From an uncultured Anaerolineales bacterium (GTDB lineage: Bacteria; Chloroflexota; Anaerolineae; B4-G1), in assembly GCA_964530325.1 (NCBI GenBank), contig CAZHAX010000002.1:6400-70399 (forward strand): a DNA stretch of 64,000 nucleotides, given 5' to 3'. Numbering within the stretch: the first letter of the stretch is position 1; the number at the start of each line of letters is the position of its first letter. The position numbers were made by a program, and so were the translations under genes. Below the pieces are notes generated by a model. That model worked only from the letters and a program-made list of their open reading frames with translations. It made no database searches and was not told the origin of the DNA. This document shows, piece after piece, positions 10,025 to 60,453 of this stretch.

Positions 10025-10031
10025 CTCTCCC

Positions 10032-13308: not shown

Positions 13309-15242
13309 CGGGCGGATGCTCCTCCCCGGCTGCTGGTTCTATCGGGGATCGTGAAACTGAAGGTCGACCCCTTGCCGGGCTCCGACTCCGCCCAGATTCT
13401 CCCTCCGTGCCGTTCGACGATCTTCTTGCACAAGGCCAGCCCTATTCCCGTCCCGGGATAGTCGTCTGTGCTGTGTAGCCGCTCGAAGATGTGAAACACT
13501 CGCTCCAGGTATTGGGTCTCAATGCCGATCCCACAGTCCTCGACCGAGAAGAGCCAGCAATCCACCTGGCGGCGCGCGCTGATGTGGACACGAGGGCTCT
13601 CTTCACGGCGGAACTTTGCCGCGTTCTCCACCAGGTGCTGGAAGACCTGCCTCAATTGCCTGGCGTCAGCGTGGACCGTGGGAAGGTCCCCCAGGCTCAC
13701 GACCGCGCCTGTCTCCTCAATGATCCCCCTCACCTTCGTCAGAGCGCGTTCTATGACCTCGACGGTATCCACCGGCTCGAAGGGGGCACCGTCGGAAGTG
13801 ACGCGCGAGTAGAGGGTCAGGTCGTTGATCAGCCTCTGCAGGCGAACGGCGCCCTGAACGCAGAACGAAATGAACTCCCGGGCGTCTGCGTCAAGCCTAT
13901 CTCCATAGCGCCTCTCGAGCAGGCGGCTGTAGCTGGCTACCATCCGCAGCGGTTCCTGGAGATGGTGCGATGATACGTGGGTGAACTGCTCCAGTTCGGC
14001 GTTGGCCCGGGCCAGTTCCTCCGCCTGGCGGGCCAGGGTCATCTCCGCCTGCGCACGCTCCGCGAGTTCCCGCTGTTGGGCCTGGTAGAGCTGGGCGTTG
14101 TCGATGGCCACGGCTATGTGGTCTGCCACGGTTTGGAGGGTTGCCTCCTCTTTCGCTGCCAGCCCGGTCGCATCAACGGCCTCGATGCTCAGGGCGCCAA
14201 GCATGCGGCCACGGGACCGGAAAGGAAGGGCAATCTCGGCACGCTGCGCAGGCCCGGATCGATCGTCGACTGTGGCGCCAAGAGTACCGACCGGCGTGAT
14301 GACTGGCTCGCCGCTGCCGATACACCTGCCTACGCCGGTCCGGCCGTCTATGGTCACTTGCTGGCCTATCTGCACGGCCACGCTGTGGCCATTTCCGCTG
14401 GCGGCCCGCAGCGTCGCTGCTCGGAGCGATTGGTCGGCGATGAACAACGCCACACGGCACACCCCGACAGGGCTCAGAGTCTCAAGGGTGTTATCCGCCG
14501 ACTCGGCAAGCAGTGTCTCCGGATCGAGTATCGATTGGCTGGCTCGGGATAGCTCGGCTGTGGACTGCAGTATCGAGGTCTGGTGGCGGAGGAGCTCGTT
14601 GGTGTCCGTGAGCCGCGCATTCGCCTCTGCCGCGGCCGTCAGCGCCGCCTGCATCCCGTTGCTGAATGAGGCCAGGATCGCTGTCGTGGCGACCGTCACC
14701 AACAGGAAGAACGCACCCTCAGCGACGAGCGGGGCGAGCGCGCTGAGGTCACCGGCGTAGCGCGGGACGATCCAGCCCCGGCTGATAGCGACCACGAAGC
14801 CCGCGTAGGTCAGCATCGTGATCAGGCCGGCGACGGCCCCCTGACGAGCGCCCAGCAGAACGTGGGCCAGGGCAGTGAGCAAGAGCAGCCACAGGCGGCC
14901 GCTTCCCGCCAGTCCTCCGCTGGCGAAGGCAACGAGCGCAATGGAGTAGGTGACCACGAGAAGCGAGATGGCCCGTACCTGGTGATGCAGGCCCCTTGCG
15001 AGGGCAACGACCAGGACGATCAGCCAGGCGGCGATGAAGGGGGCTATGGCCAACAGGGCAGACCCTCCAGCAGGGGCGTGCGGTGCGTCCGTAAGGGAGA
15101 GGTAGTAGGCGACCACCGCAACCGGTCCGACCGCTGCTGCAGCCAGGAGCAGATGGGAGAGCATCTGGCTGCGCCAGCGGTCGATCTCCGCCGGCGAGTG
15201 CGCAGCCCTGCCTTCTGTGTGCTTCGTGGTCCGATTAGTCAA
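13305..15242 (-). CDS. Membrane histidine kinase: about 5 TM helices + GAF + HisKA + HATPase
   Basis: Probable TTG start overlapping the upstream TGA (alternative ATG at 15164); hydrophobic N-terminal helices; GAF ...LGALSIE...VADHIAVAIDNAQLY; [10 protein letters not shown]; GTGIGL. Confidence 0.85.
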   Translation of the reverse strand: MTNRTTKHTEGRAAHSPAEIDRWRSQMLSHLLLAAAAVGPVAVVAYYLSLTDAPHAPAGGSALLAIAPFIAAWLIVLVVALARGLHHQVRAISLLVVTYSIALVAFASGGLAGSGRLWLLLLTALAHVLLGARQGAVAGLITMLTYAGFVVAISRGWIVPRYAGDLSALAPLVAEGAFFLLVTVATTAILASFSNGMQAALTAAAEANARLTDTNELLRHQTSILQSTAELSRASQSILDPETLLAESADNTLETLSPVGVCRVALFIADQSLRAATLRAASGNGHSVAVQIGQQVTIDGRTGVGRCIGSGEPVITPVGTLGATVDDRSGPAQRAEIALPFRSRGRMLGALSIEAVDATGLAAKEEATLQTVADHIAVAIDNAQLYQAQQRELAERAQAEMTLARQAEELARANAELEQFTHVSSHHLQEPLRMVASYSRLLERRYGDRLDADAREFISFCVQGAVRLQRLINDLTLYSRVTSDGAPFEPVDTVEVIERALTKVRGIIEETGAVVSLGDLPTVHADARQLRQVFQHLVENAAKFRREESPRVHISARRQVDCWLFSVEDCGIGIETQYLERVFHIFERLHSTDDYPGTGIGLALCKKIVERHGGRIWAESEPGKGSTFSFTIPDRTSSRGGASAR

Positions 15243-44069: not shown

Positions 44070-47000
44070 CTACGGGCCGCCGTATCCCCGAAAGATGAGG
44101 ATCAACCTGACGCGGCACGGCTCCGCCACCACCCACGCCGGCCGTTCAAGTAGTAGTCCCGTCCCATCCTCCAAGAAGGCCACGGAGTAGTGGGGCAGTT
44201 GCAGTGGGTCGGCGGGCAGCTGCAGCGCGTAGGTCACCGTGATCTGCCCGCCGGAGACGATGCTCCCTGCCCAATCGACTGCGTCGTCCGAGGCGGCTGC
44301 GCTCCCTCCCCCCGCCCAGACCAACGAGCCCGGCACGTACTCGGCGGTCGTGGGCAACGAGATCGCTACCGTCGCGCTCACCGCGGTCGCCGGCCCGGCG
44401 TTCGCCGCGGCGAGCGCGCAACTCACAACTGTCCCCGGCCGTGGCCGCTCCGGCTCGCACCACAGCGCCGAAGGGGATAGGTCCGGCGCGCCGATGCGCA
44501 CCACCGCGCCCCGGTCGAAACCTATGGAATGGTCATCCAGCCGCAGCCGGGCCGTGTTCGTGATCTGCGTGCCCGCGGTGCCCGTCAGCACCGCCGCGTA
44601 GGTCACCGTCACTCCCTCCCCCGGCCCCAGCTGCCCTGTCCAGCTCACCCGCGTCGTCGGCGGATCGTACGTCGCCGGCCCGGCCAGGCTTCCCGGCAAG
44701 ATCGTCGTGCTTGCAGGCAGGGTGTTCGAAAGCGACGCTGTCACTGTCAACGGGCCGTCGTTGCTCAGGAGTAGGGTGTAGGTCACAGCATCGCCGCTGC
44801 CCATCGCCGGCCGATTGGGGGAGAATGTCGAACCCCCTAGCCACGATAGCCACCCGACGGCCTGCTGCATCACCGCCGGACGCTCCGCCTCCGCCAGCGT
44901 CTCGAAGGGGAAGGAGAGGAAGACGGCCCTGTGATCCCCCTCTTCCCTCGAGAGCGCGATCGCCCGCCGGCCCTGATCGCGGAACGACACAGCCGTGCCC
45001 GGCCAGGGCTCGACTGCGTCCGACCAGTTGCGGAAGGGGTAGTCCAGCTCGTACGGTCCCAGCCGGTCGCCGGCCGGGTCGCCCACCACGCCTGTAGCGC
45101 TTGTCGCTGTGATGTCCTCCGCGAACGAAAGCAATCCCAGGCAGCGCCGGCTGAACGCCGAATCGCCGTGGAAGTACAGGAAGTCCTGTGACGAAAGGAA
45201 GAGGCGGCCTCCCTCTTCGAGGTAGCTCTCCAGCCAGCCGAGCTGCTCGCTCGTCACCGGTCGGTACCAGTCGTACCCCGTCCACCAGACGACGATCGGG
45301 TAGCGGGCCAGGATCTCGGGGTATGGGCCAACGTCCCAACCCGACCCGGTCGCCGGATGGGACTCCCAGACGTCATACGGCAGCCCTGCCGCACCGAGCG
45401 CCGCCTCGTACTTGGGGCGCTGTTCGTACCACCGGTCGTCGTCCACCAGCAGGATCGGTGCCGGCGCCTTCGTCGTCAGCGTGGCCGTCTGGACAAGCGT
45501 GGGCGAGAGAGTGGACTGGGCGGTGACCGTCACCTCGTCGCGGGCGTCCAACGCTGTGCTGATGGGAACCGTCACGCTGATCACCACGTTGTCGGACGTA
45601 CAGGGGCTCAGTGTGAGAGCGGGCGTGCTCAGCTGCGTGCTCCACGAGTTGCCCGAGAGCGTCAGTGTGAACGCGTCGCTGCTGCCGCTCTGGCCAACGT
45701 GGCGCAATCGCAGCGCGTGGGTGACGATGCTGCCTGCTACGCCGATGCCTGTCTGCTCAGCAGGGCTCAGCTCGAAGCCGACAGCCGCCGGCTCGGCGGC
45801 CAGCCAGTCGAGCGCCGTGCTCATGATCTCCTGGCGGCCCGCCCGGCTCTCTATGGCCTCGAACCCGAAGGATAGGTAGATCACCTTGTAGGGCAGGCAG
45901 GTGCCGATACTCAAGGCCCCACATCCGCCTTCCCGGTAGACGAGAGCCCCGGCCGCGCTGTCGGGATCGAAGGGAGCCACCACGTCCGGCGAGAACTGAT
46001 TGTCCGCCCCGCCGGGTCCGGCGATCGTGATCGTCCGCCCGGCGAAGAGGCTGCCCTCCGCGCCCTCCAATACCCAGTCATCGGCGTTGTCCTCGACGAG
46101 TTGGGCTTTCAGGTAGTCCCGGTAGTACGGAGCGTAGAAGAAGCCCGTACCCCCGTCGTCCAGGTAGCCCACATCCTGCCCGCTCAGCAGGAGCCGTCCG
46201 CCGGAGGAGAGGTGGCCGGTGATCGCCGACTGGGCCCCAATGGACCCAGGGGCGTCCTCCGGAGCGCTCCAGACGACGATGCCGTAGGGCGTCAGGTCGC
46301 CTGCCTCCGGTACGTCGCCCGGGAGCGACTTGACCACCCACTCGTCGTAGGTATATGCCAGATCGTCGAGCGCCTCCTGGTAGTAGCCGATCTGGCTGTC
46401 GTAGTCCCAGGCGCCGCTGTCGACGAGTAGGATCGAAGGCGCCGCGGGCAGGGCGAGGGAGACGGTCGTTGCCTGGCCGGCCGTGATATATGCCGTGGCT
46501 GTGAGCACCCGGTATCCCAGCTGGCTGGCCCGGACTACGTAGACCCCCTCCGGCGGCTTGAATCTGTACGAGCTGGCGGTGGCCGTGAGCGGGGTGCCCT
46601 CGAGCGTGATCGTGGCCGTGAGCGGCGCGCCCGTGGCGGCGGCGGTGGCGTTTGCCTGTAGCGTCCCCGTGGGCAGCGCGCTCAGCGAGAAATCGGCCAC
46701 GCTCACCGTATCCGTGGCCACCCCGATACTGCTGATCGCACCGGACAAGTGGCCGAAGGCGGAGGCGTTCAGGTCGTAGGTCCCGGGAGCGATGGCCATC
46801 GAGTAGAGCCCGGCACCGTCAGAACTTGCACTGCCCCCTCCGCCCTCGCCGTGGGGCGTGGCGATGACCAAGGCGCCGGCGATCGGCTGGCCAGTGCCGT
46901 ACGTCGTGACCGTCCCGGAGATGTAGCCGGGATGGGTGACGCTCGCCAGCGCGGCAAAGACATCTATCCGCCCCCAGCCGGAGTCGTTGTTGGGCACCGG

Positions 47001-48386
47001 CGAGCCAAGGGGCACGGCTGTGCTGGTGATGATGTGATAGGTGTCGCTGATCGTCAGCGCCGGGTTGGCCGAAAGCAGCAGCGCGCTCAGGCCGGCGACG
47101 TGCGGCGCAGCCATCGACGTGCCCTGCTTCGTGCCGTATACGCCGCCGGGCAGGCTGGAGCGGACGCCGACGCCCGGAGCGGCGACGTGCGGGCGTATCT
47201 CACCCCAGGGCGAGGGGCCACGGCTGGAGAAGCTGACCACGTCATCGTCCGAGTCTGTGGCTCCCACGGCGAAGGCCTCTGGCAGGGCGGCCGGCGAGCC
47301 GACCGTGCCCTCGAGCGGCCCGTCGTTGCCATTGGAGAAGATGGCGACGATGCCGGCGACCCGCAGGGCCACGATGTCGGCCCGGAACGTGGTCAGGTAG
47401 CCGTTCGAGCTACCCCAGGAGCAGTTGACGACGTCGGGCGCGCGGCCCGGGTCGCCGCCGGGGGCCAGCAGCCATTCGAAGCCGGCGTGGATCCAGGAGT
47501 CCCAGCCGTGGCCGGTGCTATCGAGGACCTTCAAGGCGATCCACTTGGCGCCGGGCGCCACGCCAATACCGGACTGTCCCACCGCTGTGCCCAGCGTGTG
47601 TGTGCCGTGGCTGTGATCGTCCATCGGATAGAGCGTGCCGTTGACTGCGTCGTACCAGTTGCCGCTGTGCACGTGCGAGCCGTGGGGGTTGTAGCCCCGA
47701 TAGTTGGCCTGCAGGTCCGGGTGAAGCCAATCAACGCCCGTGTCCATTCCGGCGACCGTTGTTCCCGTGCCGGATATACTGAGCGAGGCCCACACCTCGG
47801 GTGCGCGTACCTGGGCTATGTTCCACTCCACCGCCGAGGCGCTGGAGCTGACCAGCGATTCCGTCGTCTCCCTCTCGTCCAAGATCCAGCGGCGGTAGTG
47901 GTCGAGGCGGATCGTGGCTATGGAGCGGTGCTGCGCGAGCGCCCGGATTAGTGAGGGGCGGGCCTCCAGAGCGAGTCCGTTGAAGATCCAGAACGACCTG
48001 AAGGAGCGGACGAGGCCCGCGGCCCTGGTCGCCTCCAGGAAGCCGATCAGCTCTGACTGCGACCGCGCTGCTGTAGTCTGCAGCGCTTCTACCGCGCGCC
48101 GAGCGCTGTCTTCGGCGTCCGTCCCGCGGGAACTCGCCTCTTCCGGGTCTGCCTGCTCGCGGAGCTCGACGATGACCCGGAGCTCGTCATGCTCGCGCGA
48201 CCTAGCCAGCGCCCGGACCAGCTCGGGAGCGAGCACGCCCCCCGGCGGGTCAGGCTGAGTCGCTGCGTCGCTCGCCGGGGTTGGCGGGTCGCGCGCGGGG
48301 GGAGGCGGGGGTTCGCCCCCGCTGGCGCTGGCCCCGGTAGCCAGCAGGAAGAACAGACAGGCCAGCCAGCGAGCACTCCTCTTCAC
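44070..48386 (-). CDS. Large secreted S8 subtilase: prodomain + catalytic domain + carboxypeptidase-regulatory-like, GATase-like and DUF11 modules (about 1438 aa)
   Basis: GTG start with signal peptide; triad GMDTG, HSHGTHT, GTSMAAPH; DUF11-type GDAVTYTLLLSNDG. Confidence 0.92.
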   Translation of the reverse strand: MKRSARWLACLFFLLATGASASGGEPPPPPARDPPTPASDAATQPDPPGGVLAPELVRALARSREHDELRVIVELREQADPEEASSRGTDAEDSARRAVEALQTTAARSQSELIGFLEATRAAGLVRSFRSFWIFNGLALEARPSLIRALAQHRSIATIRLDHYRRWILDERETTESLVSSSASAVEWNIAQVRAPEVWASLSISGTGTTVAGMDTGVDWLHPDLQANYRGYNPHGSHVHSGNWYDAVNGTLYPMDDHSHGTHTLGTAVGQSGIGVAPGAKWIALKVLDSTGHGWDSWIHAGFEWLLAPGGDPGRAPDVVNCSWGSSNGYLTTFRADIVALRVAGIVAIFSNGNDGPLEGTVGSPAALPEAFAVGATDSDDDVVSFSSRGPSPWGEIRPHVAAPGVGVRSSLPGGVYGTKQGTSMAAPHVAGLSALLLSANPALTISDTYHIITSTAVPLGSPVPNNDSGWGRIDVFAALASVTHPGYISGTVTTYGTGQPIAGALVIATPHGEGGGGSASSDGAGLYSMAIAPGTYDLNASAFGHLSGAISSIGVATDTVSVADFSLSALPTGTLQANATAAATGAPLTATITLEGTPLTATASSYRFKPPEGVYVVRASQLGYRVLTATAYITAGQATTVSLALPAAPSILLVDSGAWDYDSQIGYYQEALDDLAYTYDEWVVKSLPGDVPEAGDLTPYGIVVWSAPEDAPGSIGAQSAITGHLSSGGRLLLSGQDVGYLDDGGTGFFYAPYYRDYLKAQLVEDNADDWVLEGAEGSLFAGRTITIAGPGGADNQFSPDVVAPFDPDSAAGALVYREGGCGALSIGTCLPYKVIYLSFGFEAIESRAGRQEIMSTALDWLAAEPAAVGFELSPAEQTGIGVAGSIVTHALRLRHVGQSGSSDAFTLTLSGNSWSTQLSTPALTLSPCTSDNVVISVTVPISTALDARDEVTVTAQSTLSPTLVQTATLTTKAPAPILLVDDDRWYEQRPKYEAALGAAGLPYDVWESHPATGSGWDVGPYPEILARYPIVVWWTGYDWYRPVTSEQLGWLESYLEEGGRLFLSSQDFLYFHGDSAFSRRCLGLLSFAEDITATSATGVVGDPAGDRLGPYELDYPFRNWSDAVEPWPGTAVSFRDQGRRAIALSREEGDHRAVFLSFPFETLAEAERPAVMQQAVGWLSWLGGSTFSPNRPAMGSGDAVTYTLLLSNDGPLTVTASLSNTLPASTTILPGSLAGPATYDPPTTRVSWTGQLGPGEGVTVTYAAVLTGTAGTQITNTARLRLDDHSIGFDRGAVVRIGAPDLSPSALWCEPERPRPGTVVSCALAAANAGPATAVSATVAISLPTTAEYVPGSLVWAGGGSAAASDDAVDWAGSIVSGGQITVTYALQLPADPLQLPHYSVAFLEDGTGLLLERPAWVVAEPCRVRLILIFRGYGGP

Positions 48387-48396
48387 AGCACAAACG

Positions 48397-48511
48397 ATTA
48401 TATCAGAAAGAGGGCGTTCGCCCAGGGGGTGGCGTCCGGGTTGGTGTGGCCCTGCCGGCGTCCGGTAGGGGCAAGGCACGCCTCGCCCCTACGGCGTCGT
48501 TCTGCTATAAT
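48397..48511. promoter_or_regulatory. Back-to-back extended -10 promoters (subtilase / methyltransferase)
   Basis: Minus strand TG-A-TATAAT at 48405-48397; plus strand TG-C-TATAAT at 48503-48511, followed by RBS GGGAGG. Confidence 0.65.
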
Positions 48512-48528
48512 CCACACGGGAGGCACGA

Positions 48529-49182
48529 ATGAGCGCTGTGTTCATGCGCGTGCTCGAATCGACGCCCGACCGCTACGACGCCGTGATGAGGGCGCTGACG
48601 CTTGGACGGGTCGAGCGGAGCTACGATCGCCTGGCCGCGCGCCTCGAGCCGGGCTGGCGCCTGCTCGACGTCGGCGCCGGCACCGGCGGGCTGGCATTGC
48701 GTGCGGCGGCGCGAGGCTGCCAGGTCTTGGCTATCGACGTCAACGCTGGGATGCTGGCAATCGCCCGGGGCAAGGGGGACGCGGCGGGCCTTGCTGGCCG
48801 CGTGGAGTGGCGGGAGATGGGCGTGGCGGAGGTCGATAGCCTCCCTGCAGCCGGCTTCGATGCCGTCTCTGCCGGGCTCTGTCTGTCTGAGCTGTCCGCA
48901 GACGAAAGGCGCTACTTTCTCGGTCAGGCGCTCAGGCTGCTGCGGCCGGGAGGGCTGCTGCTGCTGGCGGACGAGGTAGCGGCGCCGGGGCTGGCCGGGC
49001 TGCTCCTCCGCGCGGTCCGCGTCCCCCTCACCGCGCTCACCTGGCTGCTGGCTGGCAGCACGACGCGGGCCGTTCCCGATCTGGAGGGGCTCGTGAGGAG
49101 GACAGGGCTTGAGATCGTGGAATCCCAGTGTGGGCTGCTGGGCGGGTGGCAGGAGCTGGTGGCCAGGCGGCCTAAGGATTGA
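48529..49182 (+). CDS. cpaM: Class I SAM-dependent methyltransferase, CpaM (corrinoid-protein-associated)-like
   Basis: MRVLESTPDRYD..MRALTLGR N-terminus, LLDVGAGTG, DVNAGML, AGLCLSELS.DE; HgcAB-like fusion gene 1.2 kb downstream. Confidence 0.68.
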   Translation: MSAVFMRVLESTPDRYDAVMRALTLGRVERSYDRLAARLEPGWRLLDVGAGTGGLALRAAARGCQVLAIDVNAGMLAIARGKGDAAGLAGRVEWREMGVAEVDSLPAAGFDAVSAGLCLSELSADERRYFLGQALRLLRPGGLLLLADEVAAPGLAGLLLRAVRVPLTALTWLLAGSTTRAVPDLEGLVRRTGLEIVESQCGLLGGWQELVARRPKD

Positions 49183-50071
49183 GGACCTGCACGGTCGGCC
49201 GCAGCCCCAGATCATCGATCAGCCCGTTCAGTTCTATGTCGTTCAGCCGCCGGCCCTTGCCCGCGTAGGCGGTCAGAGCCGCCTCGAGAGCGTTTGTGCC
49301 GAACGAGCGGCCGTCGTAGCGCGGGGTGGTCGTGACCACTTTGTGCACCCCCCGGGACGCGAGCAGCCCGACGTTCTCCTCGGTCGTCGTGTTCGTGACC
49401 ACCGTCTTGCCGGCCAGGTCATTCGGCATGTACTTGCGCATGAAAAGAAAGTCGCCGGCGAGCAGATCGGCCTCCTCGAAGCAACGGGTATGCTTCGGCT
49501 CCTGTTCCGCCCCGCCGCTGCCGTAGAAGATCATGCTCATAGGGAAGAAGCTGACGATGGGCAGGAGGACCCGCGCCAGCCTGCGGTAGCTTTCGATGCC
49601 ACGCACCGGGATGGGGAGGCCCAGGCCGACCATCAGATCGCCAAAGACCACCTCATCCGCCGCCTCGGTGACCGCCTCGGCCAGCCCCAGCCTGTCGACG
49701 GCCATCGGCATGAAAGCCTTCCGGAAACGGGGCCGGCCTCCCAGATCCGCTTCGGCCAGTTCGAAGACCCGCCGCTCGAGCGTGTGCTTCAGTCCGCGGC
49801 CGTCGACGACCGGCGTGTGCCGCACGCCCCGTACCAGCTTGAGCGCGGCGCGGAGGGGATACTCGCGCTGACCCAGCCGCAGGTAGAGATCGGCGCCGCC
49901 TACACCGAGCGCATCGACCTGTCCGTCGAGCTCGGCAAAGAGCCGCTGAGCGGCCGGCACGTCGCCATCGGTGCCTATCCGCTCGACGCTGACCGGTGTG
50001 CCGGCGAGATTGGCGACCACGCGCTTATCGCGCGCTGAACTACCCAGGCTTACGCTGACCGCTCTCTTCAT
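49172..50071 (-). CDS. Conserved protein of unknown function (family often labelled quinate 5-dehydrogenase, 299 aa)
   Basis: MKRAVSVSLGSS.RD, ERIGTDGD, DGQVDALGVGG, VVDGRGLKHTLE, GKTVVTNTTT, GRSFGTNALEA; TATAAT at 50104-50099. Confidence 0.75.
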   Translation of the reverse strand: MKRAVSVSLGSSARDKRVVANLAGTPVSVERIGTDGDVPAAQRLFAELDGQVDALGVGGADLYLRLGQREYPLRAALKLVRGVRHTPVVDGRGLKHTLERRVFELAEADLGGRPRFRKAFMPMAVDRLGLAEAVTEAADEVVFGDLMVGLGLPIPVRGIESYRRLARVLLPIVSFFPMSMIFYGSGGAEQEPKHTRCFEEADLLAGDFLFMRKYMPNDLAGKTVVTNTTTEENVGLLASRGVHKVVTTTPRYDGRSFGTNALEAALTAYAGKGRRLNDIELNGLIDDLGLRPTVQVLNP

Positions 50072-50140
50072 GGGCGCCCCTTGGGTTCTCCGGGCGGCAT
50101 TATACACCTCCGCGCGGGCCTGCGAAAGCGCCACGGATCT

Positions 50141-50241
50141 ACCGCAGAGAGCGCAGAGATCGCGGAGAAGCCGAAAGCGGCGGGGAGGGGGCAGCCCCGA
50201 AGAGGATTGTCACCCTCGGCGCCCTCTGCGTGCTCTGCGGT
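50141..50241. repeat. 101-bp element bounded by imperfect 27-bp inverted repeats built from three 9-mers
   Basis: Left: ACCGCAGAG AGCGCAGAG ATCGCGGAG. Right (reverse complement): ACCGCAGAG CACGCAGAG GGCGCCGAG. Confidence 0.75.
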
Positions 50242-50266
50242 TGGTGTGTCCGGAGGGGCTGTCTGC

Positions 50267-50295
50267 TTGTGCTCGCCTGGCCCGCAGGCTATAAT
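50267..50295 (+). promoter_or_regulatory. Promoter of the HgcAB-like gene
   Basis: TTGTGC-17-TATAAT. Confidence 0.55.
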
Positions 50296-50352
50296 CATTC
50301 GCGCAGAGGCTGATGCCCGCAGTCGCCGCCTGTTCTGGCTTGTTTGCGTGCA

Positions 50353-51450
50353 ATGATTGACACAGCGCTGCCCCGGCCGCTGTTGTGGCTTGTCACAACA
50401 GCGCTTCGCCTGCTTCCCTGGCCTACTCGCACAGGGCTGCGCCGTGTGGGCAGCCCGGGTCCGTCGTCCTCTGTCGTACTCACGGCCAACTTCGCGCTGA
50501 CCGTGCAACGGGTGAGGCGGGCGCTGCGCGGCCTCGATGCCTGGCTCCTGGTGGCGAACTCGCGCGGCATCAACGTCTGGTGCGCCGCCGCCGGCGGCCA
50601 TCTGACGACGCACGACGTCATTTCCTCGCTGAAGACGACCACCGTTGCCGATAGTGTATCGCACCGTCGCCTCGTGCTGCCCCAGTTGGCGGCCGCCGGC
50701 GTGGAGGCGGACGAGGTGCGGCGGCGAGCCGGCTGGGAGGTGGTCTGGGGGCCGGTCGATGTGCGCGATCTGCCCTCGTTCCTGCAAGGCGAGGAGTCGC
50801 CCCAGATGCGCCAGGTCGAGTTCGGGCTCCTCCAGCGCGTCGAGATGGCCGTGATGTGGGCCGCTCCGCTTTCTCTGCTCGCCCTGGCCGCAGCGCTCGT
50901 CTGGCCAGAGGGGGCGCTGCCGCTCCTGGGTACCATCTGGGGCCTTGCGCTGGCCGTCTATCTCGCTTTCCCTCTATATGAGCGGCTCGTCGCACGCACC
51001 GGGTTGGCCGGCTTCCTGACCCTGTTTGGAGTGTTTGCCGTGGCAGGGGCCGCGATGGTTGACATACTGGGCGGCAACCTGGCCTGGCCGTTCCTGCTCC
51101 GCTGGGGTGGGATTGGCTTGGCTACGGTCTTCATGCTCGGGATCGACCTGGCCGGCAGTACTCCGCTCTACAAGAGCTGGGTCCAGCCCGAGCGCCGCTG
51201 CACTGTGGCCCTGGCTGTGGAGCGGTGCACAGCCTGCGGTCGCTGCGCCGAGGTCTGCCCGCGAGGGGTGTTCGTCGTGGAGCGGGTTGCCGCCCTGCGC
51301 CAGGCCGATCGCTGCGAGCAGTGTGGGGCTTGCATCGTCCAGTGCCCGGAGGACGCACTCAGCTTCGCCGGCCCGGGCGGTGAGAGCGTCGGTGCCGACA
51401 TCATCCGCAGGCACAAGCTCAACCTGCTGGGGCGGAGGGGCCACGACTAG
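50353..51450 (+). CDS. Fused HgcAB-like protein: CdhD/HgcA-type corrinoid domain + TM helices + 2x[4Fe-4S] ferredoxin (about 365 aa)
   Basis: TGL.RVG.P...S.V.LTANF.LT, WLLVANSRGINVWCAAAGG, RRLVLPQLAA.GV, WGPV; hydrophobic helices; CTACGRCAEVCP and CEQCGACIVQCP. Start could be TTG 50344. Confidence 0.9.
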   Translation: MIDTALPRPLLWLVTTALRLLPWPTRTGLRRVGSPGPSSSVVLTANFALTVQRVRRALRGLDAWLLVANSRGINVWCAAAGGHLTTHDVISSLKTTTVADSVSHRRLVLPQLAAAGVEADEVRRRAGWEVVWGPVDVRDLPSFLQGEESPQMRQVEFGLLQRVEMAVMWAAPLSLLALAAALVWPEGALPLLGTIWGLALAVYLAFPLYERLVARTGLAGFLTLFGVFAVAGAAMVDILGGNLAWPFLLRWGGIGLATVFMLGIDLAGSTPLYKSWVQPERRCTVALAVERCTACGRCAEVCPRGVFVVERVAALRQADRCEQCGACIVQCPEDALSFAGPGGESVGADIIRRHKLNLLGRRGHD

Positions 51451-51531
51451 CGGTGGCTCCAGGCACAGCGCTCGTCCTCGGGATTGCTCGAGGAGTCTGA
51501 GAATGACGTATCCGTCTGGGGAGGCGTCAAC

Positions 51532-52479
51532 GTGAAGAAGGTGGCCAAGTTCGTCAAGGCCGTAGTCAAGAACGTCGAAACAGTGATCGTGGGCAAGGCT
51601 CGCCAAGTCGAGCTCCTCCTGGCTGCGGTGCTCTGCCAGGGTCACGTCCTGATCGATGACGTCCCCGGCGTGGGCAAGACTATGCTCGCCCGCGCGGTAG
51701 CGGGCAGCATGGGGCTCGATTGCAGGCGGCTCCAGTGCACGCCCGATCTTCTGCCCAACGACATCACCGGAGTGAATGTGTTTAACCAGAAGACCGCCGA
51801 ATTCGAGTTCCGCCCGGGCCCCGTCTTCGTCAACATCCTCCTGGCGGACGAGATCAACCGGGCCACGCCGCGGACGCAGGCCGCACTGCTCGAGGCCATG
51901 CAGGAGCGGCAGGTATCGATCGACGGGGTCACGCATCCGCTCGACGCCCCCTTCCTGGTTCTGGCCACGCAGAACCCGGTCGAGCACGAGGGCACCTTTG
52001 CCTTGCCGGAGGCGCAGAGGGACCGCTTCCTGATCAGCCTGTCGCTGGGCTATCCCGAGGGCGAGGATGAGATAGAGATGCTGCGCAACCTGCGGAAGAC
52101 CCACCCGATCGAGGCCATCGGATCCGTTGTCGACGGATCGAAGCTGATCGACCTGGCCGACCTGGTGACCGACGTCCACGTCGACGAGACAGTGGAGCAC
52201 TACATCCTGGCCATTGTGCAGGCCACCCGCACGCACTCGGACGTTGGCCTGGGGGCCAGCCCGCGCGGCTCGCTGGCCCTGTACAAGATGGCCCAGGCCA
52301 TGGCTGCGCTGCAGGGCCGCGACTACGTGCTGCCGGACGACGTAAAGGAGCTGGTTCCGCTCACGCTCTCCCATCGGTTGATCATCAGACCCGAAAGCCA
52401 GCTGCGAGGACGTACTCCGGCGAGCGTGCTCGAGCGCATAGTCGAGGACACGCCCTTGGATGTGGGCGATCATCGGTAG
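51532..52479 (+). CDS. moxR: MoxR-family AAA+ ATPase
   Basis: RBS GGGAGG; DDVPGVGKT, QCTPDLLP.D, LADEINRATPRTQAALLEAM, ATQNPVE, GASPRG. Confidence 0.93.
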   Translation: MKKVAKFVKAVVKNVETVIVGKARQVELLLAAVLCQGHVLIDDVPGVGKTMLARAVAGSMGLDCRRLQCTPDLLPNDITGVNVFNQKTAEFEFRPGPVFVNILLADEINRATPRTQAALLEAMQERQVSIDGVTHPLDAPFLVLATQNPVEHEGTFALPEAQRDRFLISLSLGYPEGEDEIEMLRNLRKTHPIEAIGSVVDGSKLIDLADLVTDVHVDETVEHYILAIVQATRTHSDVGLGASPRGSLALYKMAQAMAALQGRDYVLPDDVKELVPLTLSHRLIIRPESQLRGRTPASVLERIVEDTPLDVGDHR

Positions 52480-52490
52480 ACAGCGCCTCC

Positions 52491-53672
52491 ATGCAGAGCT
52501 TCGGGCCGTTCCTGCTGCTCCTCCTGCTCATTGCGGTCCTGCTGCGTGCCGATTCCTTCGTCCTCGTTGCCTATGTTCTGCTTGGAGCCTACCTACTCTC
52601 TGACATGTGGACCCGCCATCTAATCGGGCGGCTGCACGTCCGGCGCACCTTCACCGATCGAGCCTTCCGCGGCGAACGGATTGCCGTGGAGGTGGAGATC
52701 GACAACAGCAGCTGGTTGCCGGTGCCCTGGCTGGAGATTGGCGAATCGCTGCCGGTCGGCCTGGCTAACCCGCCGTTTCGGCGTGCCGCCATGGGCATTG
52801 GGCCCCGGGGAAAGAGGCATCTGCGCTACGTGCTGGCCTGTCAGCGTCGAGGATATTACAGCATCGGCCCCGCCGTGCTGCGGACGGGCGGATTGCTGGG
52901 TATCAGGCCCGTCAGCCGCAAGGTGACGCCGGCCGACCACCTGATAGTCTATCCCGAGGTCGTCAGCCTGGGCCAGCTCGGTCTGCCCACCCGCTCGCCG
53001 CTAGTCGTATCTGCCGCTCAGGTTTCACTCTTCGAAGACCCGGCCCGGGTGATGGGTGTGCGGGACTACCAGGTGGGCGATTCGCCACGGCGGATGCATT
53101 GGACGGCGACGGCCCGAGTGGGCAAGCTGCTCGTACGGCGGTATCAGCCTGGCAGCGCTCGGGAGACGCTTGTCTGCCTGGATCTGGATCGGGAGAGCTA
53201 CAGCCTGGGCCAGCCGTACGACTCCGCGGAACTGGCGATCGTCGTCGCCGCCTCGATCGCTAATCACACTGCTGTTCGCGAGCGGCTGCCAGTCGGCCTG
53301 GCGACGGAGGCCTTCGACCCGGAGCTGGGCCGGAATGCCCGCTTCCTCATCCCGCCTGGGTCTGGCCAGGCCCATCTGATACGACTGATGGAGGTGCTGG
53401 CCAGGGTGCAGATGTCCTCCTCGGCCCCGTTCCAGGAGCTGCTGCTACGGGAGACGCTTCGGCTGTCCTGGGGAAGCACGCTGGTGGCGATCACTGGCAG
53501 TGAGAGCGAGCCGCTTCTCGAGGAGATCTTCAGAATCAGGAGTTCCGGCTTCGCCGTGGCCCTGGTCCTGGTTGGGCCTGGGCGCAGTTCGTCTGCATTG
53601 CGGAGGGGGGCGACGGGTGTTGGTCTGGCCGTGCACCGCGTGTGGCGGAAGAGAGACCTGGAAGCCTGGTGA
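52491..53672 (+). CDS. DUF58-domain protein (MoxR partner)
   Basis: RRGYYSIGP, VYPEV, GVRDYQVGD..RRMHWTATAR.GKL; follows moxR. Confidence 0.88.
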   Translation: MQSFGPFLLLLLLIAVLLRADSFVLVAYVLLGAYLLSDMWTRHLIGRLHVRRTFTDRAFRGERIAVEVEIDNSSWLPVPWLEIGESLPVGLANPPFRRAAMGIGPRGKRHLRYVLACQRRGYYSIGPAVLRTGGLLGIRPVSRKVTPADHLIVYPEVVSLGQLGLPTRSPLVVSAAQVSLFEDPARVMGVRDYQVGDSPRRMHWTATARVGKLLVRRYQPGSARETLVCLDLDRESYSLGQPYDSAELAIVVAASIANHTAVRERLPVGLATEAFDPELGRNARFLIPPGSGQAHLIRLMEVLARVQMSSSAPFQELLLRETLRLSWGSTLVAITGSESEPLLEEIFRIRSSGFAVALVLVGPGRSSSALRRGATGVGLAVHRVWRKRDLEAW

Positions 53673-55255
53673 CGGAGTCTGAAGGCTGGACGGGAAGGGT
53701 GTTCCGGCCCCTGGTCGTAGGGGCGATGGTTGCCTGCCTGGCGTTGGCAAGCGCCGGCCTGCTCGCTCTCGGCGGAGTATGGCTGAGTACAGCCGCCCTG
53801 GTGCTGATACCGCTGCTGGCAGCGCTGGAGAGCGCCAGCACGCGCCGCCTGATCAAGGCACGATTGCTCTGGCGCCTGGGCGCAGGCAGGACGCGGGCGC
53901 TCGAGATCGTACTCCTGTTCATCATGGCCCGTCTGGTGAGCTATCTGGGGTATTCCTGGGCCGATATCGTGGCCGAGGCGCGGCTTTGGCCGGTCGATCC
54001 ACTGGCAATGGCAGGGCCGGTGCAGGTGGCGGCGTTCGGCACAGCTCTGCTGGCGTGGTGGGCGGTGAATGCCACGGAGCGCGACTTCGAGCGTATCGGC
54101 GGCCTGCCCGATTCCGACCGCCGCGGGCGCAGCCGGGACTATGTGCCCCCGCGGGCGACGGTGACTGCCCGCATCTTCGTCGGAGGCGCGCTGCTGCTCA
54201 TCCTGACGGCTTTCCCCTACGCCAGTTTGGTGGCCGGCAGCGGCTTCTACACCATATCGAGGCCCCTGCCGCTGTACCTGGCAGCCTACTTCGTGCTCGG
54301 TCTAGCTCTGCTGGCACTCGTGCAGCATGCGGAGCTCCAACACTGGTGGAGGGCGAGCGGCGTCCGGGTCAGCCTCGGCCTGGCCGGGAGGTGGGCTCGC
54401 TACAGCCTGGCCATCGTCGCCCTGGCGACGCTTGTCGCCCTCGTTCTGCCGACGGACTACTCCTTGGGCTTGTTTGACCTTGCCTCTAGAGCGCTCTATC
54501 CGCTGGTCGTCGCGGCCTCCTACGTAGCCTACGGGATCCTCGTCGCGGCGTTCTTCATCATCGCGTTGTTGGGGAGGCTAACCGCTCTTCTGCTGGGGAA
54601 CGGGCCCGCGCCGATGGCAGGGCCGCCCGCTGAGCCGCCGGTGGTAGAGCCGATCGCTCCGCTGCCGAACTGGCTGGATATCCTCCGATCGGTTGTCTTC
54701 TGGGCAGCCACGGTAGCTGGCGCGGTATACGTGGTCCGCAGTTACCTTCGCGATCATCCAGCCGTGTTGCGCTCGCTATCCAGGATAGGATGGGTCCGCG
54801 GCCTGCTAGATGGCCTGGCCAGGCTTTGGGGGCAGGCCGCGCGGGCCGCTGCCGCCGCCCGGGAGCTCGTCTCGCACCCAAGCCTGCGCCGGCGCCGGCG
54901 CGGGTCGCGTGCGCGTAGACGTCTCCGCCTTCTTAGGCCGGGCTCGCTTCCACCTCGTGAACGGATCTGGTACTACTACGGGAGCCTCCTGCGGCGTGCA
55001 GCCCGATCGGGGTTGCCCAGAGGCGGCAGCCAGACCCCCTTCGAGTACGAGGCGGCAGCCTGGCCTGCGCTGGCTGGGGCCAGGGATGACATGCGGCTTC
55101 TGACTCAGGCCTACGTGGAGGCACGCTACAGCGCCCACGCGATAACGCCGGAAAGGGCCCAAGAGGCACGCGCCCAGCTGAGCCGCCTGATGGCGGCGCT
55201 CAGGTCGGCGGACGTGGGACGCAAGAGCAAAGGCGAGGCGGCGACGTCGCCCTGA
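53669..55255 (+). CDS. Multi-pass membrane protein with C-terminal DUF4129
   Basis: GTGA overlap; many TM helices; YGSLLRRA...GLPR..SQTPFEY...LTQAYVEARYS. Confidence 0.8.
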   Translation: MTESEGWTGRVFRPLVVGAMVACLALASAGLLALGGVWLSTAALVLIPLLAALESASTRRLIKARLLWRLGAGRTRALEIVLLFIMARLVSYLGYSWADIVAEARLWPVDPLAMAGPVQVAAFGTALLAWWAVNATERDFERIGGLPDSDRRGRSRDYVPPRATVTARIFVGGALLLILTAFPYASLVAGSGFYTISRPLPLYLAAYFVLGLALLALVQHAELQHWWRASGVRVSLGLAGRWARYSLAIVALATLVALVLPTDYSLGLFDLASRALYPLVVAASYVAYGILVAAFFIIALLGRLTALLLGNGPAPMAGPPAEPPVVEPIAPLPNWLDILRSVVFWAATVAGAVYVVRSYLRDHPAVLRSLSRIGWVRGLLDGLARLWGQAARAAAAARELVSHPSLRRRRRGSRARRRLRLLRPGSLPPRERIWYYYGSLLRRAARSGLPRGGSQTPFEYEAAAWPALAGARDDMRLLTQAYVEARYSAHAITPERAQEARAQLSRLMAALRSADVGRKSKGEAATSP

Positions 55256-55460
55256 GATAGCCGGGTCTCCGGTCCCGGAGCTGGGGTCGCCCCGGTTGTC
55301 TCGGTTTCTAGATTGTGCTTCCAGTCGCCGCGCCTAGCAGCAACCCTCTGCGAGCGCTGCTCCGTCTCGGGTGGGCCTTCTGCAACAGGCTGCGCCAGCC
55401 CGCCCGGCTCTCGCGCGTGGGCGGCGCCGTGCTGGCCCACTCGCAGTCTCGCGCCTTTCC

Positions 55461-55489
55461 TTGACGCCTCATCCCCTTGCCTGTAGAAT
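55461..55489 (+). promoter_or_regulatory. Leaderless-type promoter
   Basis: TTGACG-17-TAGAAT, 8 nt before ATG 55498, no SD sequence. Confidence 0.7.
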
Positions 55490-55497
55490 ACGCGCGT

Positions 55498-56346
55498 ATG
55501 GGGCGGCCACCTGTTGTCACCTTGACGACCGACTTCGGGATGGCCGACGGCTATGTGGCGGCGATGAAGGGGGTCATTCTCCGTATCGCCCCGGAAGCGC
55601 ACCTGATCGATATCTCGCACGAGATTGAGCCCCACCGCGTGCGAGTTGCAGCTTTCGTGCTCTACGCTGCCTACTCGTACTTCCCCGACCACACAATTCA
55701 CATCGTGGTCGTAGACCCCGGGGTGGGCGGTGACAGGCGGGCTATCGCCTTCGGCACGCCCGCGGGCAGTTTTGTTGGTCCGGACAACGGCGTCTTCACC
55801 TACATAATGGCACGGGAGGAGATTCAGCAGCTGGTCGAGTTGCGAGAGCCAGGCTACCGGCTCGATCCGCTGAGCGGCACGTTCCATGGCCGAGACCTCT
55901 TCGCGCCAGCTGCCGCCCATCTGGCCACAGGCACGCCACTGGGCGACCTGGGTCCTTCAGTCGACGATCCCGTTACTCTCGCACTACCGCTATTGGAGGT
56001 CGGCCCGGCGTCGCTGAAGGGGGAGGTGATGCACGTCGATCGCTTCGGCAACGCGATAACGAGCATCGGCCGGCTGGCATGGCGCGGCGCGGAGCTGGTG
56101 CTCGATCCGGCCTTCGGGCGGGGCGGGCCGTCGGGAGGAGCGGCCTTCTCCGCTCAGGGCGCCGTGACGGACGCTGCGGGCTGGGAGATCACCGGCATCT
56201 GCCGTACGTATGCTGAGGCAGACCGGGACCAAGTGCTGGCCCTGGTCGGCAGCGGGGGATATCTGGAGATCGCCATGCGTGAAGGGAGCGCCGCCCGGGA
56301 GTTACGTTTGAGTGCTGGAGCTCCCGTGGTGGTTCGCTATTCATAG
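55498..56346 (+). CDS. DUF62 SAM hydroxide adenosyltransferase (chlorinase/fluorinase superfamily)
   Basis: [45 protein letters not shown]; Asp-Arg-His triad present. Confidence 0.9.
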
Positions 56347-58498: not shown

Positions 58499-59041
58499 AT
58501 GAGGTACGGAAGGTTTGCCTTGGCGCTGGCCTTGCTGGTGACGGCCGTGGCCTGCACGGGAGGTGGAGATGACACGACGACTGATGATGGTGACGCCATC
58601 GTGACAGACGAGCTCGACTTCACGGCCGATGCCGCTTTCGGCGGTGTAGAGCTCGAGTCCGGCTTCATGCCGGATCCCTATACGGTGGACGTGCTGAGCG
58701 GCGGAACCGTCGACGTCGATGCCCTGGATATCGGCTCCGATTGCCGCGGCTATGCAGCCACGGCGCCGGACTTCAGGTTAATCCTCTCCGATTCGTCCGC
58801 CATGATCCGCATCTTCTTCGTTGCCGATGAGTCCGGCGAGGATGCTACTCTGATCATCAACGAGCCTGGCGCCGGCTGGGTCTGCAACGACGACTATGGT
58901 GGCGTCAATCCTATGCTCGAGTTCGCGCCGGCGGACGAAGGCACGTACGACATCTGGGTCGGCAGCTTCAGCGCTGATGACCTGATAGTGGGCACCCTCT
59001 ATATCACCGAGCTGGCCTACGAGCCGAGCGACGTACAGTAA
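58499..59041 (+). CDS. Acidic lipoprotein with one GFxPDP/CNDD (PPC-like) domain (180 aa)
   Basis: RBS AAGGAG; lipobox AVAC; ELESGFMPDP, C.GY, PDFRL, WVCNDD, YDIWVGSF. Confidence 0.75.
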   Translation: MRYGRFALALALLVTAVACTGGGDDTTTDDGDAIVTDELDFTADAAFGGVELESGFMPDPYTVDVLSGGTVDVDALDIGSDCRGYAATAPDFRLILSDSSAMIRIFFVADESGEDATLIINEPGAGWVCNDDYGGVNPMLEFAPADEGTYDIWVGSFSADDLIVGTLYITELAYEPSDVQ

Positions 59042-59060
59042 CTCATAGAGGTACCGTCTC

Positions 59061-59091
59061 AGCAGCCAGGGCGCTCGGGGCCCTGGCTGCT
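59061..59091 (+). terminator. Terminator-like hairpin
   Basis: AGCAGCCAGGGC-7 nt-GCCCTGGCTGCT, 12-bp perfect stem. Confidence 0.65.
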
Positions 59092-59161
59092 TGCACGTCC
59101 GGACGGCGTGCGCCGCCGAGCCAGGCGCCACTCTTGCCTTGCGATTGGCACCAGAGACCTA

Positions 59162-59190
59162 TTGCCCGGCGTGGGGCCTTGTGCTAGACT
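59162..59190 (+). promoter_or_regulatory. Promoter of repeat-domain lipoprotein 2
   Basis: TTGCCC-17-TAGACT with TGn. Confidence 0.6.
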
Positions 59191-59379
59191 GACACCAGTT
59201 GCGAGCTACACCGCTGCTCTGCAGATTCCGGGGCTGCGGCTGCTCATGGCGCAGCCGCACTTCCGGATGCTGCCGTGCCCAGTGCTTCCTTGCCCCGTTG
59301 CCCGGCGCAGGGGAGCTTGGGGGCGCCTATGGCATTGTGGCTGGCAGCGCAGAGACCAAACTACGAATGGAGGAATCAA

Positions 59380-60453
59380 GTGAGATCGCTAAGACTGACG
59401 TTCGCGGCCGTGCTGCTTCTGTCGATGCTTGCCTGTTCGCTGGGCGGAGGAGAAGAGGAAGCCACCCCGACGAGGACCACTGTTCCCACGCGTACGCCCA
59501 GGCCAGAACAGCCCACACGCATGCCCACCGAGGAGCAGGATGCGCCACCCGGCGACGGCCTCGATTTCAGGCTGGAGCCCAATTTCGGTGAGGTGGAGCT
59601 GGAATCAGGCTTCTTGCCCGATCCGTTCACGGTGGCTGTGGTCAGCGGCGGGCCCGTCTACGTTATCGACTATGACCTGGGCGACGAGTGCTGGGGATAC
59701 GCCACCAGCTCTCCTGACTTTCGCCTGTATCTCACCGATTCGTCCCCGGGCCTGCGCTTCTTCTTCGTCGCGGACGTGCTGAACGATGATGCGACGCTGA
59801 TCGTCAACACGCCGGACAACGAGTGGGTGTGCAACGACGACTACGGCAGCGGGGTCGATCCGCTGGTTCAGCTGGTTCCAGCCGGCGCTGGCCAGTATGA
59901 CATCTGGGTGGCCAGCTTCAGCGAGGACGAGTTCGTGGATGGCACGCTCTACATAACCGAGATGGACATCACTCCGGATGACTACAGCGACGGCGCGTCC
60001 TTACCGCCGGCGGGTGGCAACGGGCTCGATTACAGCCTGGAGCCCAACTACGGCGAGGTCGAGCTGGCGTCCGGCTTCGTGCCTGATCCGTACAGTCTCG
60101 AGATGATCGCCGGGGGGCCGGTCGACGTCTACGCCTATGACCTGGGTGATGACTGCTGGGGATACGCAACCAGCTCTCCTGACTTCAGGCTGTATCTGAC
60201 GGACGCATCCTCCGGAATGCGTATCTTCTTTGTCGCAGATGGATCCGACGAGGACACGACGCTGATCATAAACACCCCCACTGGGGCATGGGTCTGCAAC
60301 GACGACTACGACAGCGGATACGATCCGATGGTCGAGCTGGCGCCGGCTGCAGCAGGCCAATACGACATCTGGGTGGGTAGCTTCAGCGAGGACGAGTACG
60401 TGGGGGGCACGCTCTACATCACCGAGGTAGCCCTCTCGCCCGGCGACTTCTGA
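59380..60453 (+). CDS. Acidic lipoprotein with two tandem GFxPDP/CNDD (PPC-like) domains (357 aa)
   Basis: RBS GGAGG, GTG start, lipobox MLAC, PT linker, two near-identical domains of about 135 aa. Confidence 0.78.
   Translation: MRSLRLTFAAVLLLSMLACSLGGGEEEATPTRTTVPTRTPRPEQPTRMPTEEQDAPPGDGLDFRLEPNFGEVELESGFLPDPFTVAVVSGGPVYVIDYDLGDECWGYATSSPDFRLYLTDSSPGLRFFFVADVLNDDATLIVNTPDNEWVCNDDYGSGVDPLVQLVPAGAGQYDIWVASFSEDEFVDGTLYITEMDITPDDYSDGASLPPAGGNGLDYSLEPNYGEVELASGFVPDPYSLEMIAGGPVDVYAYDLGDDCWGYATSSPDFRLYLTDASSGMRIFFVADGSDEDTTLIINTPTGAWVCNDDYDSGYDPMVELAPAAAGQYDIWVGSFSEDEYVGGTLYITEVALSPGDF

Follow-up and report, generated by a model that had tools for sequence, protein, structure and literature searches.

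A split cpaM and hgcAB-like gene pair in an uncultured Anaerolineales bacterium, candidate halves of a SAM- and corrinoid-dependent methyltransferase

The system closest to the genes described here is the mercury methylation system HgcA/HgcB, which reportedly goes back to Parks in 2013. What the HgcA family does in the cell has been a question since that year, and the fused proteins among its paralogues tend to be put aside as 'non-methylators'. We analysed one such fusion gene, hgcAB-like, together with its partner cpaM, which encodes a class I methyltransferase dependent on S-adenosylmethionine (SAM), in a stretch of 64,000 nucleotides from an uncultured Anaerolineales bacterium (assembly GCA_964530325.1, contig CAZHAX010000002.1, positions 6,400 to 70,399 of the forward strand). 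This whole stretch is called the window below, and positions are counted from its first letter. Descriptions of fused HgcAB proteins date back to 2015, and the literature uses the family as an outgroup, a paralogue whose function is unknown (PMC4646819, 10.1101/2022.11.21.517362, PMC7438021), and the association of CpaM with a corrinoid protein is already encoded in the names of the NCBIfam families.

The HgcAB-like protein has in common with HgcA/HgcB a corrinoid domain of the type found in the corrinoid iron-sulfur protein (CFeSP), a cysteine of the cap helix as cobalt ligand, a transmembrane domain, a dicluster ferredoxin for the regeneration of Co(I) and SAM as the likely source of the methyl group. 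It differs from it in that the A and B parts form one chain, four transmembrane helices are predicted instead of five, the cap helix reads NVWCxxxGG, the C-terminal Cys pair of HgcB is missing and the scores lie below the HgcA and HgcB cutoffs; moreover, the HgcAB-like protein has an obligate class I partner, CpaM, and the hosts of fused HgcAB that were tested make no methylmercury. With purified true HgcAB, SAM methylates Co(I) with a Kd of 33 μM and a rate constant of about 0.15 s-1 to give a Cys-ligated methyl-Co(III), the electrons being supplied by HgcB (Zheng et al. 2024, PMC11588087).

Two other groups of enzymes are comparable. In the Wood-Ljungdahl pathway, CFeSP (AcsC/AcsD) is likewise a corrinoid protein loaded at Co(I) by a separate methyltransferase, MeTr (AcsE), with Fe-S reactivation and a homologous corrinoid domain. 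However, the methyl donor is methyl-tetrahydrofolate on the TIM-barrel MeTr and not SAM on a Rossmann methyltransferase, and CFeSP is soluble, has a Thr instead of a Cys at the cap-helix position and passes the methyl group to the nickel site of acetyl-CoA synthase. In the reactivation domain of MetH, the cobalamin-dependent radical-SAM enzymes (class B) and TsrM-type enzymes, SAM methylates cob(I)alamin with electrons from flavodoxin, ferredoxin or Fe-S clusters, and the likeness is that methyl-cobalamin methylates a substrate that SAM cannot attack directly. These enzymes differ from the present pair by unrelated SAM-binding folds, CpaM and the HgcAB-like protein being membrane-anchored as a pair with a Cys as lower ligand. 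The CX3CX2C radical-SAM motif is absent from the pair, and no radical SAM family is found among its Pfam and NCBIfam matches.

In the window, cpaM (217 amino acids) lies on the plus strand at 48529-49182 and the hgcAB-like fusion gene (365 amino acids) on the same strand at 50353-51450, 1,170 nt further downstream. CpaM scores 244.2 bits against the NCBIfam family NF043040 (cutoff 180), with residues 3-214 aligned to model positions 2-216 of 216, and the HgcAB-like protein scores 400.4 bits against NF043039 (cutoff 285), covering model positions 2-350 of 350. The initial annotation, which was made from the letters alone, had recognised a SAM-dependent methyltransferase with three motifs, MRVLESTPDRYD (residues 6-17), DVGAGTG (47-53) and AGLCLSEL (115-122), had named it CpaM, had taken the fusion as HgcAB-like and had placed the methyltransferase 1.2 kb upstream of it on the same strand. 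The positions agree and all three motifs are present; the name CpaM is that of a real curated NCBIfam family, whose cutoff the window protein passes, and the NF043039 score bears out the identity of the fusion. CpaM also has the position that defines its family, upstream of an HgcAB-like gene on the same strand, although 1,170 nt and one gene separate the two. Compared with the NF043039/NF043040 pair of other genomes, the window thus has the same order and orientation and near full-length matches, and its junction is interrupted.

We observed that the linkage of the two families is near-obligate in both directions. In the forward direction, a profile of the fusion protein found a relative in at least 548 species-level genomes, of which the best 80 loci were examined. 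They come from bacteria (Chloroflexota, Gemmatimonadota, Acidobacteriota, Binatia, Desulfobacterota, Myxococcota, Gammaproteobacteria, Spirochaetota, Aminicenantes, Bacteroidota and Actinomycetota) and from archaea (Thermococcaceae, Methanofastidiosia, Hydrothermarchaeota, Methanococcoides and an Asgard lineage). In 76 of these 80 loci the gene just upstream, on the same strand, encodes a CpaM homologue; three of the four exceptions have less than 250 nt of upstream sequence and were counted as non-informative, which gives 76 of 77. In the reverse direction, a CpaM profile searched against metagenome contigs yielded 27 full-length members of the family, besides 53 generic methyltransferases. 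The HgcAB-like gene is directly downstream in 24 of the 27 CpaM loci, and in all 24 informative ones since the remaining three have at most 250 nt of downstream sequence, against none of the 53 loci of generic methyltransferases. The association with HgcA-like proteins by which the initial annotation defined CpaM therefore held in the neighbourhood survey, and co-occurrence of the two families outside this genome, far from lacking, is near-universal.

The way in which the two genes are joined elsewhere is as regular as their proximity. At 36 of 68 junctions the stop codon of cpaM overlaps the next start codon by 4 nt (ATGA or GTGA), and at most of the remaining junctions the two codons are within about 11 nt of each other, a sequence signature of translational coupling. 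The two proteins are also co-inherited, as the distance matrices of CpaM and HgcAB-like proteins are correlated (Mantel r = 0.72, with 0 of 999 permutations as high) at equal mean divergence. No third conserved partner was found by clustering the open reading frames (ORFs) of the 80 loci and by Pfam searches of 145 flanking genes, each family other than the pair occurring in at most 7 of the 80; since no third family stands beside the pair, it is a self-contained two-gene cassette. In one Methanofastidiosia metagenome-assembled genome (MAG), an extra 209-amino-acid gene on the same strand is present between cpaM and hgcAB-like (L005:4317-4946), and its product has a weak similarity to ArsM/UbiE-type methyltransferases.

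That the two window proteins act as one enzyme is supported most strongly by natural fusions. An exhaustive search of protein clusters with a CpaM profile gave 201 cluster representatives at E <= 1e-30, and the top 150 were checked for their length. At least 15 of these 150 are 482-644 amino acids long with CpaM at the N terminus. Ten of the long representatives were scanned, and all ten contain a full-length CpaM above the cutoff, followed in six by a complete HgcAB-like protein (a triple fusion) and in four by the corrinoid and membrane part of an HgcA-like protein only, the ferredoxin being absent. The fusion representatives are more than 50 % different from each other, so they are stable, arose repeatedly and cannot be put down to sequencing errors. 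One fusion could be read straight from contig DNA: in L110, positions 2413-4068 form a single ORF of 551 amino acids encoding CpaM and an HgcA-like protein with no ferredoxin domain. It overlaps by 4 nt a separate gene (to position 4352) for an HgcB-like ferredoxin of 95 amino acids with a Cys-rich tail (CGCISC...). The fusion scores between the HgcA and HgcAB-like models, and judging from this locus the CpaM partnership would reach beyond the fused HgcAB family. Apparent long HgcAB ORFs in some of the genome loci were also considered as fusions, and were rejected as over-extended starts in another frame.

The fusion protein of the window is built as expected for its family, with a corrinoid-binding domain (residues ~1-150) whose cap-helix Cys77 is encoded at 50581-50583, then a membrane part of four transmembrane helices (residues 159-264; 50827-51144) and finally a ferredoxin domain of the 2x[4Fe-4S] type (residues 285-340; 51205-51372). 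Pfam places CdhD at residues 26-145 and Fer4 at residues 288-345 of the 368-amino-acid ORF. The best-supported start is the ATG at 50353, as two relatives, L081 and L082, have the same codon within the same context, ATGAT(T/C)GA. The public gene call gives only 334 amino acids, which is probably too short since homologues cover 97-98 % of the 365-residue form. The AlphaFold2 (AF2) model of the protein (mean predicted local distance difference test score, pLDDT, 91.3; predicted template modelling score 0.88) contains the four transmembrane helices, an even number, so that the two soluble domains would face the same side of the membrane. In structural comparisons it is closest to 9a0b_A, the published integrative model of HgcAB, and next to CFeSP, onto which the corrinoid domain superposes at 2.4 Å over about 129 residues.

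The motifs of the fusion protein are NVWCAAAGGH, CTACGRCAEVCP and CEQCGACIVQCP. The cap-helix Cys is invariant in the 80 loci, and all of them have N[VI]WCxxxGG. The window protein contains two complete CxxCxxCxxxCP motifs, as do its close relatives, while 72 of the 80 family members lack the second Cys of the first motif (usually CxxAxxCxxxCP), which implies for these proteins a three-Cys, site-differentiated [4Fe-4S] or a [3Fe-4S] cluster.

CpaM matches Methyltransf_25/11 in Pfam, and its AF2 model (pLDDT 84.5) has the Rossmann fold of class I methyltransferases, with AtmM/RebM as best match in the Protein Data Bank (PDB) by E-value, Coq5 by TM-score (0.76) and PmtA also near. All residues that are invariant in the family are present in the window protein: D47, G49, G51, T52 and G53, which form the glycine-rich SAM loop, and D70, E96, E101, S120, E121, L122 and D148. 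C118, which precedes the S120-E121-L122 motif after strand beta-4, is the sole near-invariant Cys of the family, being conserved in at least 90 % of the members. A conserved N-terminal lid, MRxLESxPxRYD, and a hydrophobic helix at residues ~155-175 both have low confidence in the model. Models of other methyltransferases score far lower. With UbiE/MenG, ArsM and BchM models we obtained 35-48 bits for cutoffs of 158-378; ArsM-like chemistry was rejected at 35.3 bits against 263 (NF008823), and the family does not have the several conserved Cys expected for binding of As(III).

Linkage in both directions, translational coupling and natural fusions argue that the two proteins form one enzyme. Taking these data with the domain analysis, the co-inheritance and the retention of both genes after their separation in the window and in one relative, L081, we think that cpaM and hgcAB-like probably encode the two halves of one membrane-anchored methyltransferase dependent on SAM and a corrinoid, working as a methyl relay. 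By transfer from true HgcAB to its sister family, we infer as follows which way the methyl group moves, that CpaM does the loading and what kind of acceptor is served. The C-terminal ferredoxin domain, with its two [4Fe-4S] clusters, would accept low-potential electrons and reduce the corrinoid in the N-terminal CFeSP-type domain to Co(I). CpaM carrying SAM would dock on the corrinoid domain, transfer a methyl cation to Co(I) and release S-adenosylhomocysteine, and the resulting methyl-Co(III) would be stabilised by Cys77 of the cap helix. The four-helix domain would keep the Cys-ligated methyl-corrinoid at the membrane face, where the methyl group could be delivered in the form of a carbanion or radical equivalent; the data suggest that the acceptor is not Hg(II).

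Several points weigh against this relay. To our knowledge, no class I methyltransferase methylates protein-bound corrinoids. The enzymes with the closest folds to CpaM, Coq5, RebM and PmtA, act on small molecules or lipids. The neighbourhood of the pair in the 80 loci gives no clue to an acceptor, and the literature that was searched does not mention CpaM or a methyltransferase partner of fused HgcAB. Finally, true HgcAB takes the methyl group of SAM in vitro with no help from a class I methyltransferase (PMC11588087); the chemistry can thus do without a separate loader, and CpaM may act otherwise, for instance on the acceptor side.

The initial annotation had itself offered, beside the relay, a role of CpaM as a repair module only, comparable to the activation of MetH. 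SAM and reduced ferredoxin would then re-methylate a corrinoid oxidised to Co(II), and the catalytic donor would be a methylated folate or pterin or a methyl compound from the environment. A ferredoxin domain and a SAM-binding protein are what reductive reactivation needs, and the CFeSP relatives, which are the closest solved folds, use methyl-folate donors and separate activators (4c1n). However, the 80 loci show no conservation of a second methyltransferase or of a folate-binding protein beside the pair, and genes coupled 1:1 in translation, with products that can be covalently fused, are to be expected of a stoichiometric catalytic subunit rather than of a repair factor needed now and then. 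Moreover, SAM is the catalytic donor of true HgcAB (PMC11588087). We regard a pure repair function as unlikely, and find the relay better grounded by the coupling, the natural fusions and the use of SAM by true HgcAB.

It is less probable still that the complex processes or traffics vitamin B12, an incoming corrinoid being reductively methylated to methylcobalamin at the membrane, with Co-S ligation, and handed on. Such a role would agree with the membrane domain and with the finding that neither a conserved acceptor-specific partner nor a metabolic pattern is seen across the phyla, and Co-thiolate ligation is typical of the eukaryotic B12 chaperones MMADHC and MMACHC. On the other hand, the corrinoid domain is homologous to methyl-carrier proteins that retain their cofactor, and in the 80 loci no genes for B12 transporters or for adenosyl- or methyl-transferase trafficking co-occur with the pair, which makes this proposal speculative.

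A mercury-methylating variant of HgcAB, making methylmercury, stands marginally lower again among the improbable readings. In its favour, the protein belongs to a sister family of HgcA and HgcB, the cap-helix Cys is conserved, and no structure matches it better than the HgcAB model. However, it is not a true HgcA by score, reaching 165.8 bits with NF040863 for a cutoff of 275, and the HgcB model NF040864 gives 49.8 bits for a cutoff of 99, the ferredoxin being fused and not separate. Nor is the motif N(V/I)WCA(A/G/S)GK, a high-stringency criterion for true HgcA, found in any of the 80 loci, all of which have N[VI]WCxxxGG (PMC10087281). The C-terminal Cys pair of HgcB, which mutagenesis showed to be needed for mercury methylation (PMC11588087), is absent from the window protein, whose tail after the last cluster motif, EDALSFAGPGGESVGADIIRRHKLNLLGRRGHD, contains no Cys, and from 70 of the 80 relatives. 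In addition, P. furiosus and M. methylutens, both of the cultured organisms with fused HgcAB that were tested, did not produce methylmercury above controls (PMC4646819, PMC5893877, PMC10087281), although Podar et al. point out that a negative whole-cell assay is no proof that the enzyme is incapable (PMC4646819). One of these negative tests may be uninformative. In a Methanococcoides MAG, cpaM looks N-terminally disrupted (L013:4928-5620): it lacks model positions 1-58, that is the lid and the SAM glycine loop, and begins with a fragment resembling a UvrD-like helicase. If cpaM of M. methylutens is similarly damaged, the result with this organism is less informative.

That the two genes are functionally independent, with CpaM a UbiE/MenG-type methyltransferase of quinones or small molecules that happens to be nearby, could draw on their distance of 1.17 kb in the window, their separate promoters and the weak similarity of CpaM to UbiE/Coq5, but this idea, to which we give almost no weight, is effectively refuted by the linkage in both directions, the stop/start overlaps and the natural fusions, and a grouping with UbiE/MenG, considered from the outset as a possible objection, does not appear, CpaM scoring 43.2 bits with TIGR01934 (cutoff 158) and 47.5 bits with NF001240 (cutoff 378).

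Beyond the relay itself, a broader and more tentative proposal can be made. It is possible, though we would not call it likely, that CpaM and HgcAB-like proteins constitute a widespread, self-contained methylase that inverts the polarity of the methyl group for an acceptor other than mercury. The methyl group of SAM would pass through the Cys-ligated corrinoid to an electrophilic or membrane-associated acceptor, for example another metal or metalloid or a lipid-soluble compound. Since CpaM is also fused to HgcA-like proteins that are themselves un-fused and have a separate HgcB-like ferredoxin, the CpaM-dependent form may be the ancestral function of the HgcA family. Mercury methylation would then be a derived or accidental offshoot that dispensed with CpaM.

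A dedicated SAM methyltransferase, translational coupling and covalent fusion in many lineages turn the paralogue into a defined two-component enzyme. With the 2024 finding on HgcAB and SAM, whether CpaM loads the corrinoid becomes a concrete question, and a route is given to the natural acceptor and, through it, to the purpose of the system from which mercury methylation descends. The results of the survey, namely the two-way linkage, the coupling, the repeated fusions and the occurrence of CpaM on un-fused HgcA-like proteins, are of wider interest than the instance in the window, which is an intact and correctly recognised member of a curated pair with an unusual, interrupted gene order.

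We return to that gene order. The region holds four genes in two divergent pairs, followed downstream by genes for MoxR, DUF58 and DUF4129. The usually tight or overlapping junction between cpaM and hgcAB-like is broken here by a gene on the opposite strand (49172-50071, minus strand), which encodes a conserved hypothetical protein of 299 amino acids and overlaps the 3' end of cpaM convergently by 11 nt, and by about 280 nt of intergenic DNA. The initial annotation had described a minus-strand gene of unknown function and a repeat element between the pair, and both are found at the positions it gave; it had taken the separated layout as the architecture of the system, which proved instead to be a derived interruption of a normally tight two-gene operon. 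Indeed, the inserted gene is absent from all of the 80 HgcAB-like loci; outside the window it separates the pair only in L081, a 71 % relative with the same order of cpaM (plus strand), 299-amino-acid gene (minus strand) and hgcAB-like (plus strand). In the closest genome relatives, L001 and L002, and in a 70 % relative, L083, cpaM and hgcAB-like are adjacent, with MoxR nearby as in the window. These comparisons of gene order point to a lineage-specific interruption, a derived rearrangement or insertion in one Anaerolineae-type sub-lineage. After the split both genes remained intact and kept every family-invariant residue, and L081 likewise keeps both genes intact as well as a conserved promoter.

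The inserted protein has 6,773 homologues, of which the top 120 are at least 72 % identical to it. It has no match in Pfam (E <= 10 and 0.01), in NCBIfam (0.01) or among PDB sequences (E <= 1), and the label 'quinate 5-dehydrogenase' that it carries in some NCBI records is unsupported by any of our searches. As it occurs in none of the 80 loci, we rejected it as a part of the system.

The initial annotation had also given each gene of the pair its own TATAAT box, and these were found at 48506-48511 for cpaM and at 50290-50295 for hgcAB-like, both on the plus strand. The hexamer occurs seven times in the window for 1.8 expected, and four of the seven lie within 1.9 kb (48397-50295), each ahead of one of the four genes. 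The cpaM box is followed by a Shine-Dalgarno sequence, GGGAGG (48518-48523, plus strand); its -35 match is weak (3/6), and the site failed the full promoter scan. In that scan for -35 and -10 boxes (48300-51600), the promoter-like site of the inserted gene, TTCGCA-16-TATAAT (50099-50126, minus strand; 10 of 12 positions match), was the sole full sigma-70-type match. The promoter of hgcAB-like, TTGTGC-17-TATAAT (50267-50295, plus strand), is conserved ahead of the gene in L082 (83 % protein identity) and in L081 (71 %). The conservation of box, leader and start in these relatives supports the view that it is a real promoter, one that would have been gained, or else kept, once the two genes were apart.

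The 5' leader of hgcAB-like (50296-50352) is conserved with L081:2276-2335 and L082:~115-172, and contains a small GAGGC...GCCTC stem. The fourth box of the cluster, at 48397-48402 on the minus strand, lies inside the listed ORF of a subtilisin-type protease (1,469 amino acids; 44070-48479, minus strand). From its position, the true start of the protease is probably further downstream, near the signal-peptide-like VKRSARWLACLFFLL.

The element described as a repeat is an imperfect inverted repeat forming a hairpin between the divergent promoters (50141-50241), with arms of 27 nt that are 81 % complementary. Its folding energy in the single-stranded form of the DNA is -33 kcal/mol (z = -4.4), and 0 of 200 shuffled sequences fold equally well. 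It is present once in the window, so a dispersed repeat was ruled out there; L081 has similar inverted-repeat arms with a longer spacer. A search of the intergenic regions against Rfam found no riboswitch or known RNA: nothing passed the gathering thresholds, and the matches at E <= 1 were noise.

Between the divergent protease and cpaM genes lies a 28-nt palindrome with a perfect stem, GTAGGGGCAAGGCACGCCTCGCCCCTAC (48465-48492), which matches on both strands where 0 matches are expected by chance. A similar palindrome is found upstream of hgcAB-like in L082. The window palindrome is probably a REP-like (repetitive extragenic palindromic) or operator element, and is not proven to be part of the system. 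More generally, the intergenic DNA around the split pair is filled with GC-rich palindromes and hairpins (48465-48492 and 50141-50241), and the matching regions of the relatives (L081:1810-2230 and L082:1-90) carry related sequences, with GTAGGGGC.AGGCACGCCTCGCCCCTAC-like and CTCTGCG.GCTCTGCGGTTG arms. These may be REP-like or MITE-like (miniature inverted-repeat transposable element) sequences tied to the rearrangement.

Downstream of the pair, the MoxR-DUF58-DUF4129 genes (51484-56346 region) follow hgcAB-like only in the close relatives L001, L002, L082 and L083. A SAM hydroxide adenosyltransferase gene (SAM_HAT, 55477-56346) comes directly after hgcAB-like in L081 (3524-4381) and in none of the 80 diverse loci. 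We had considered both as candidate parts of the system and rejected them: they are syntenic only in close Anaerolineae-type relatives, a lineage synteny outside the system. Elsewhere in the window, at 9490-15934 and 58604-60448, several families of long, diverged direct repeats (160-300 nt, 63-80 % identity) were observed, which probably mark paralogous gene or domain repeats.

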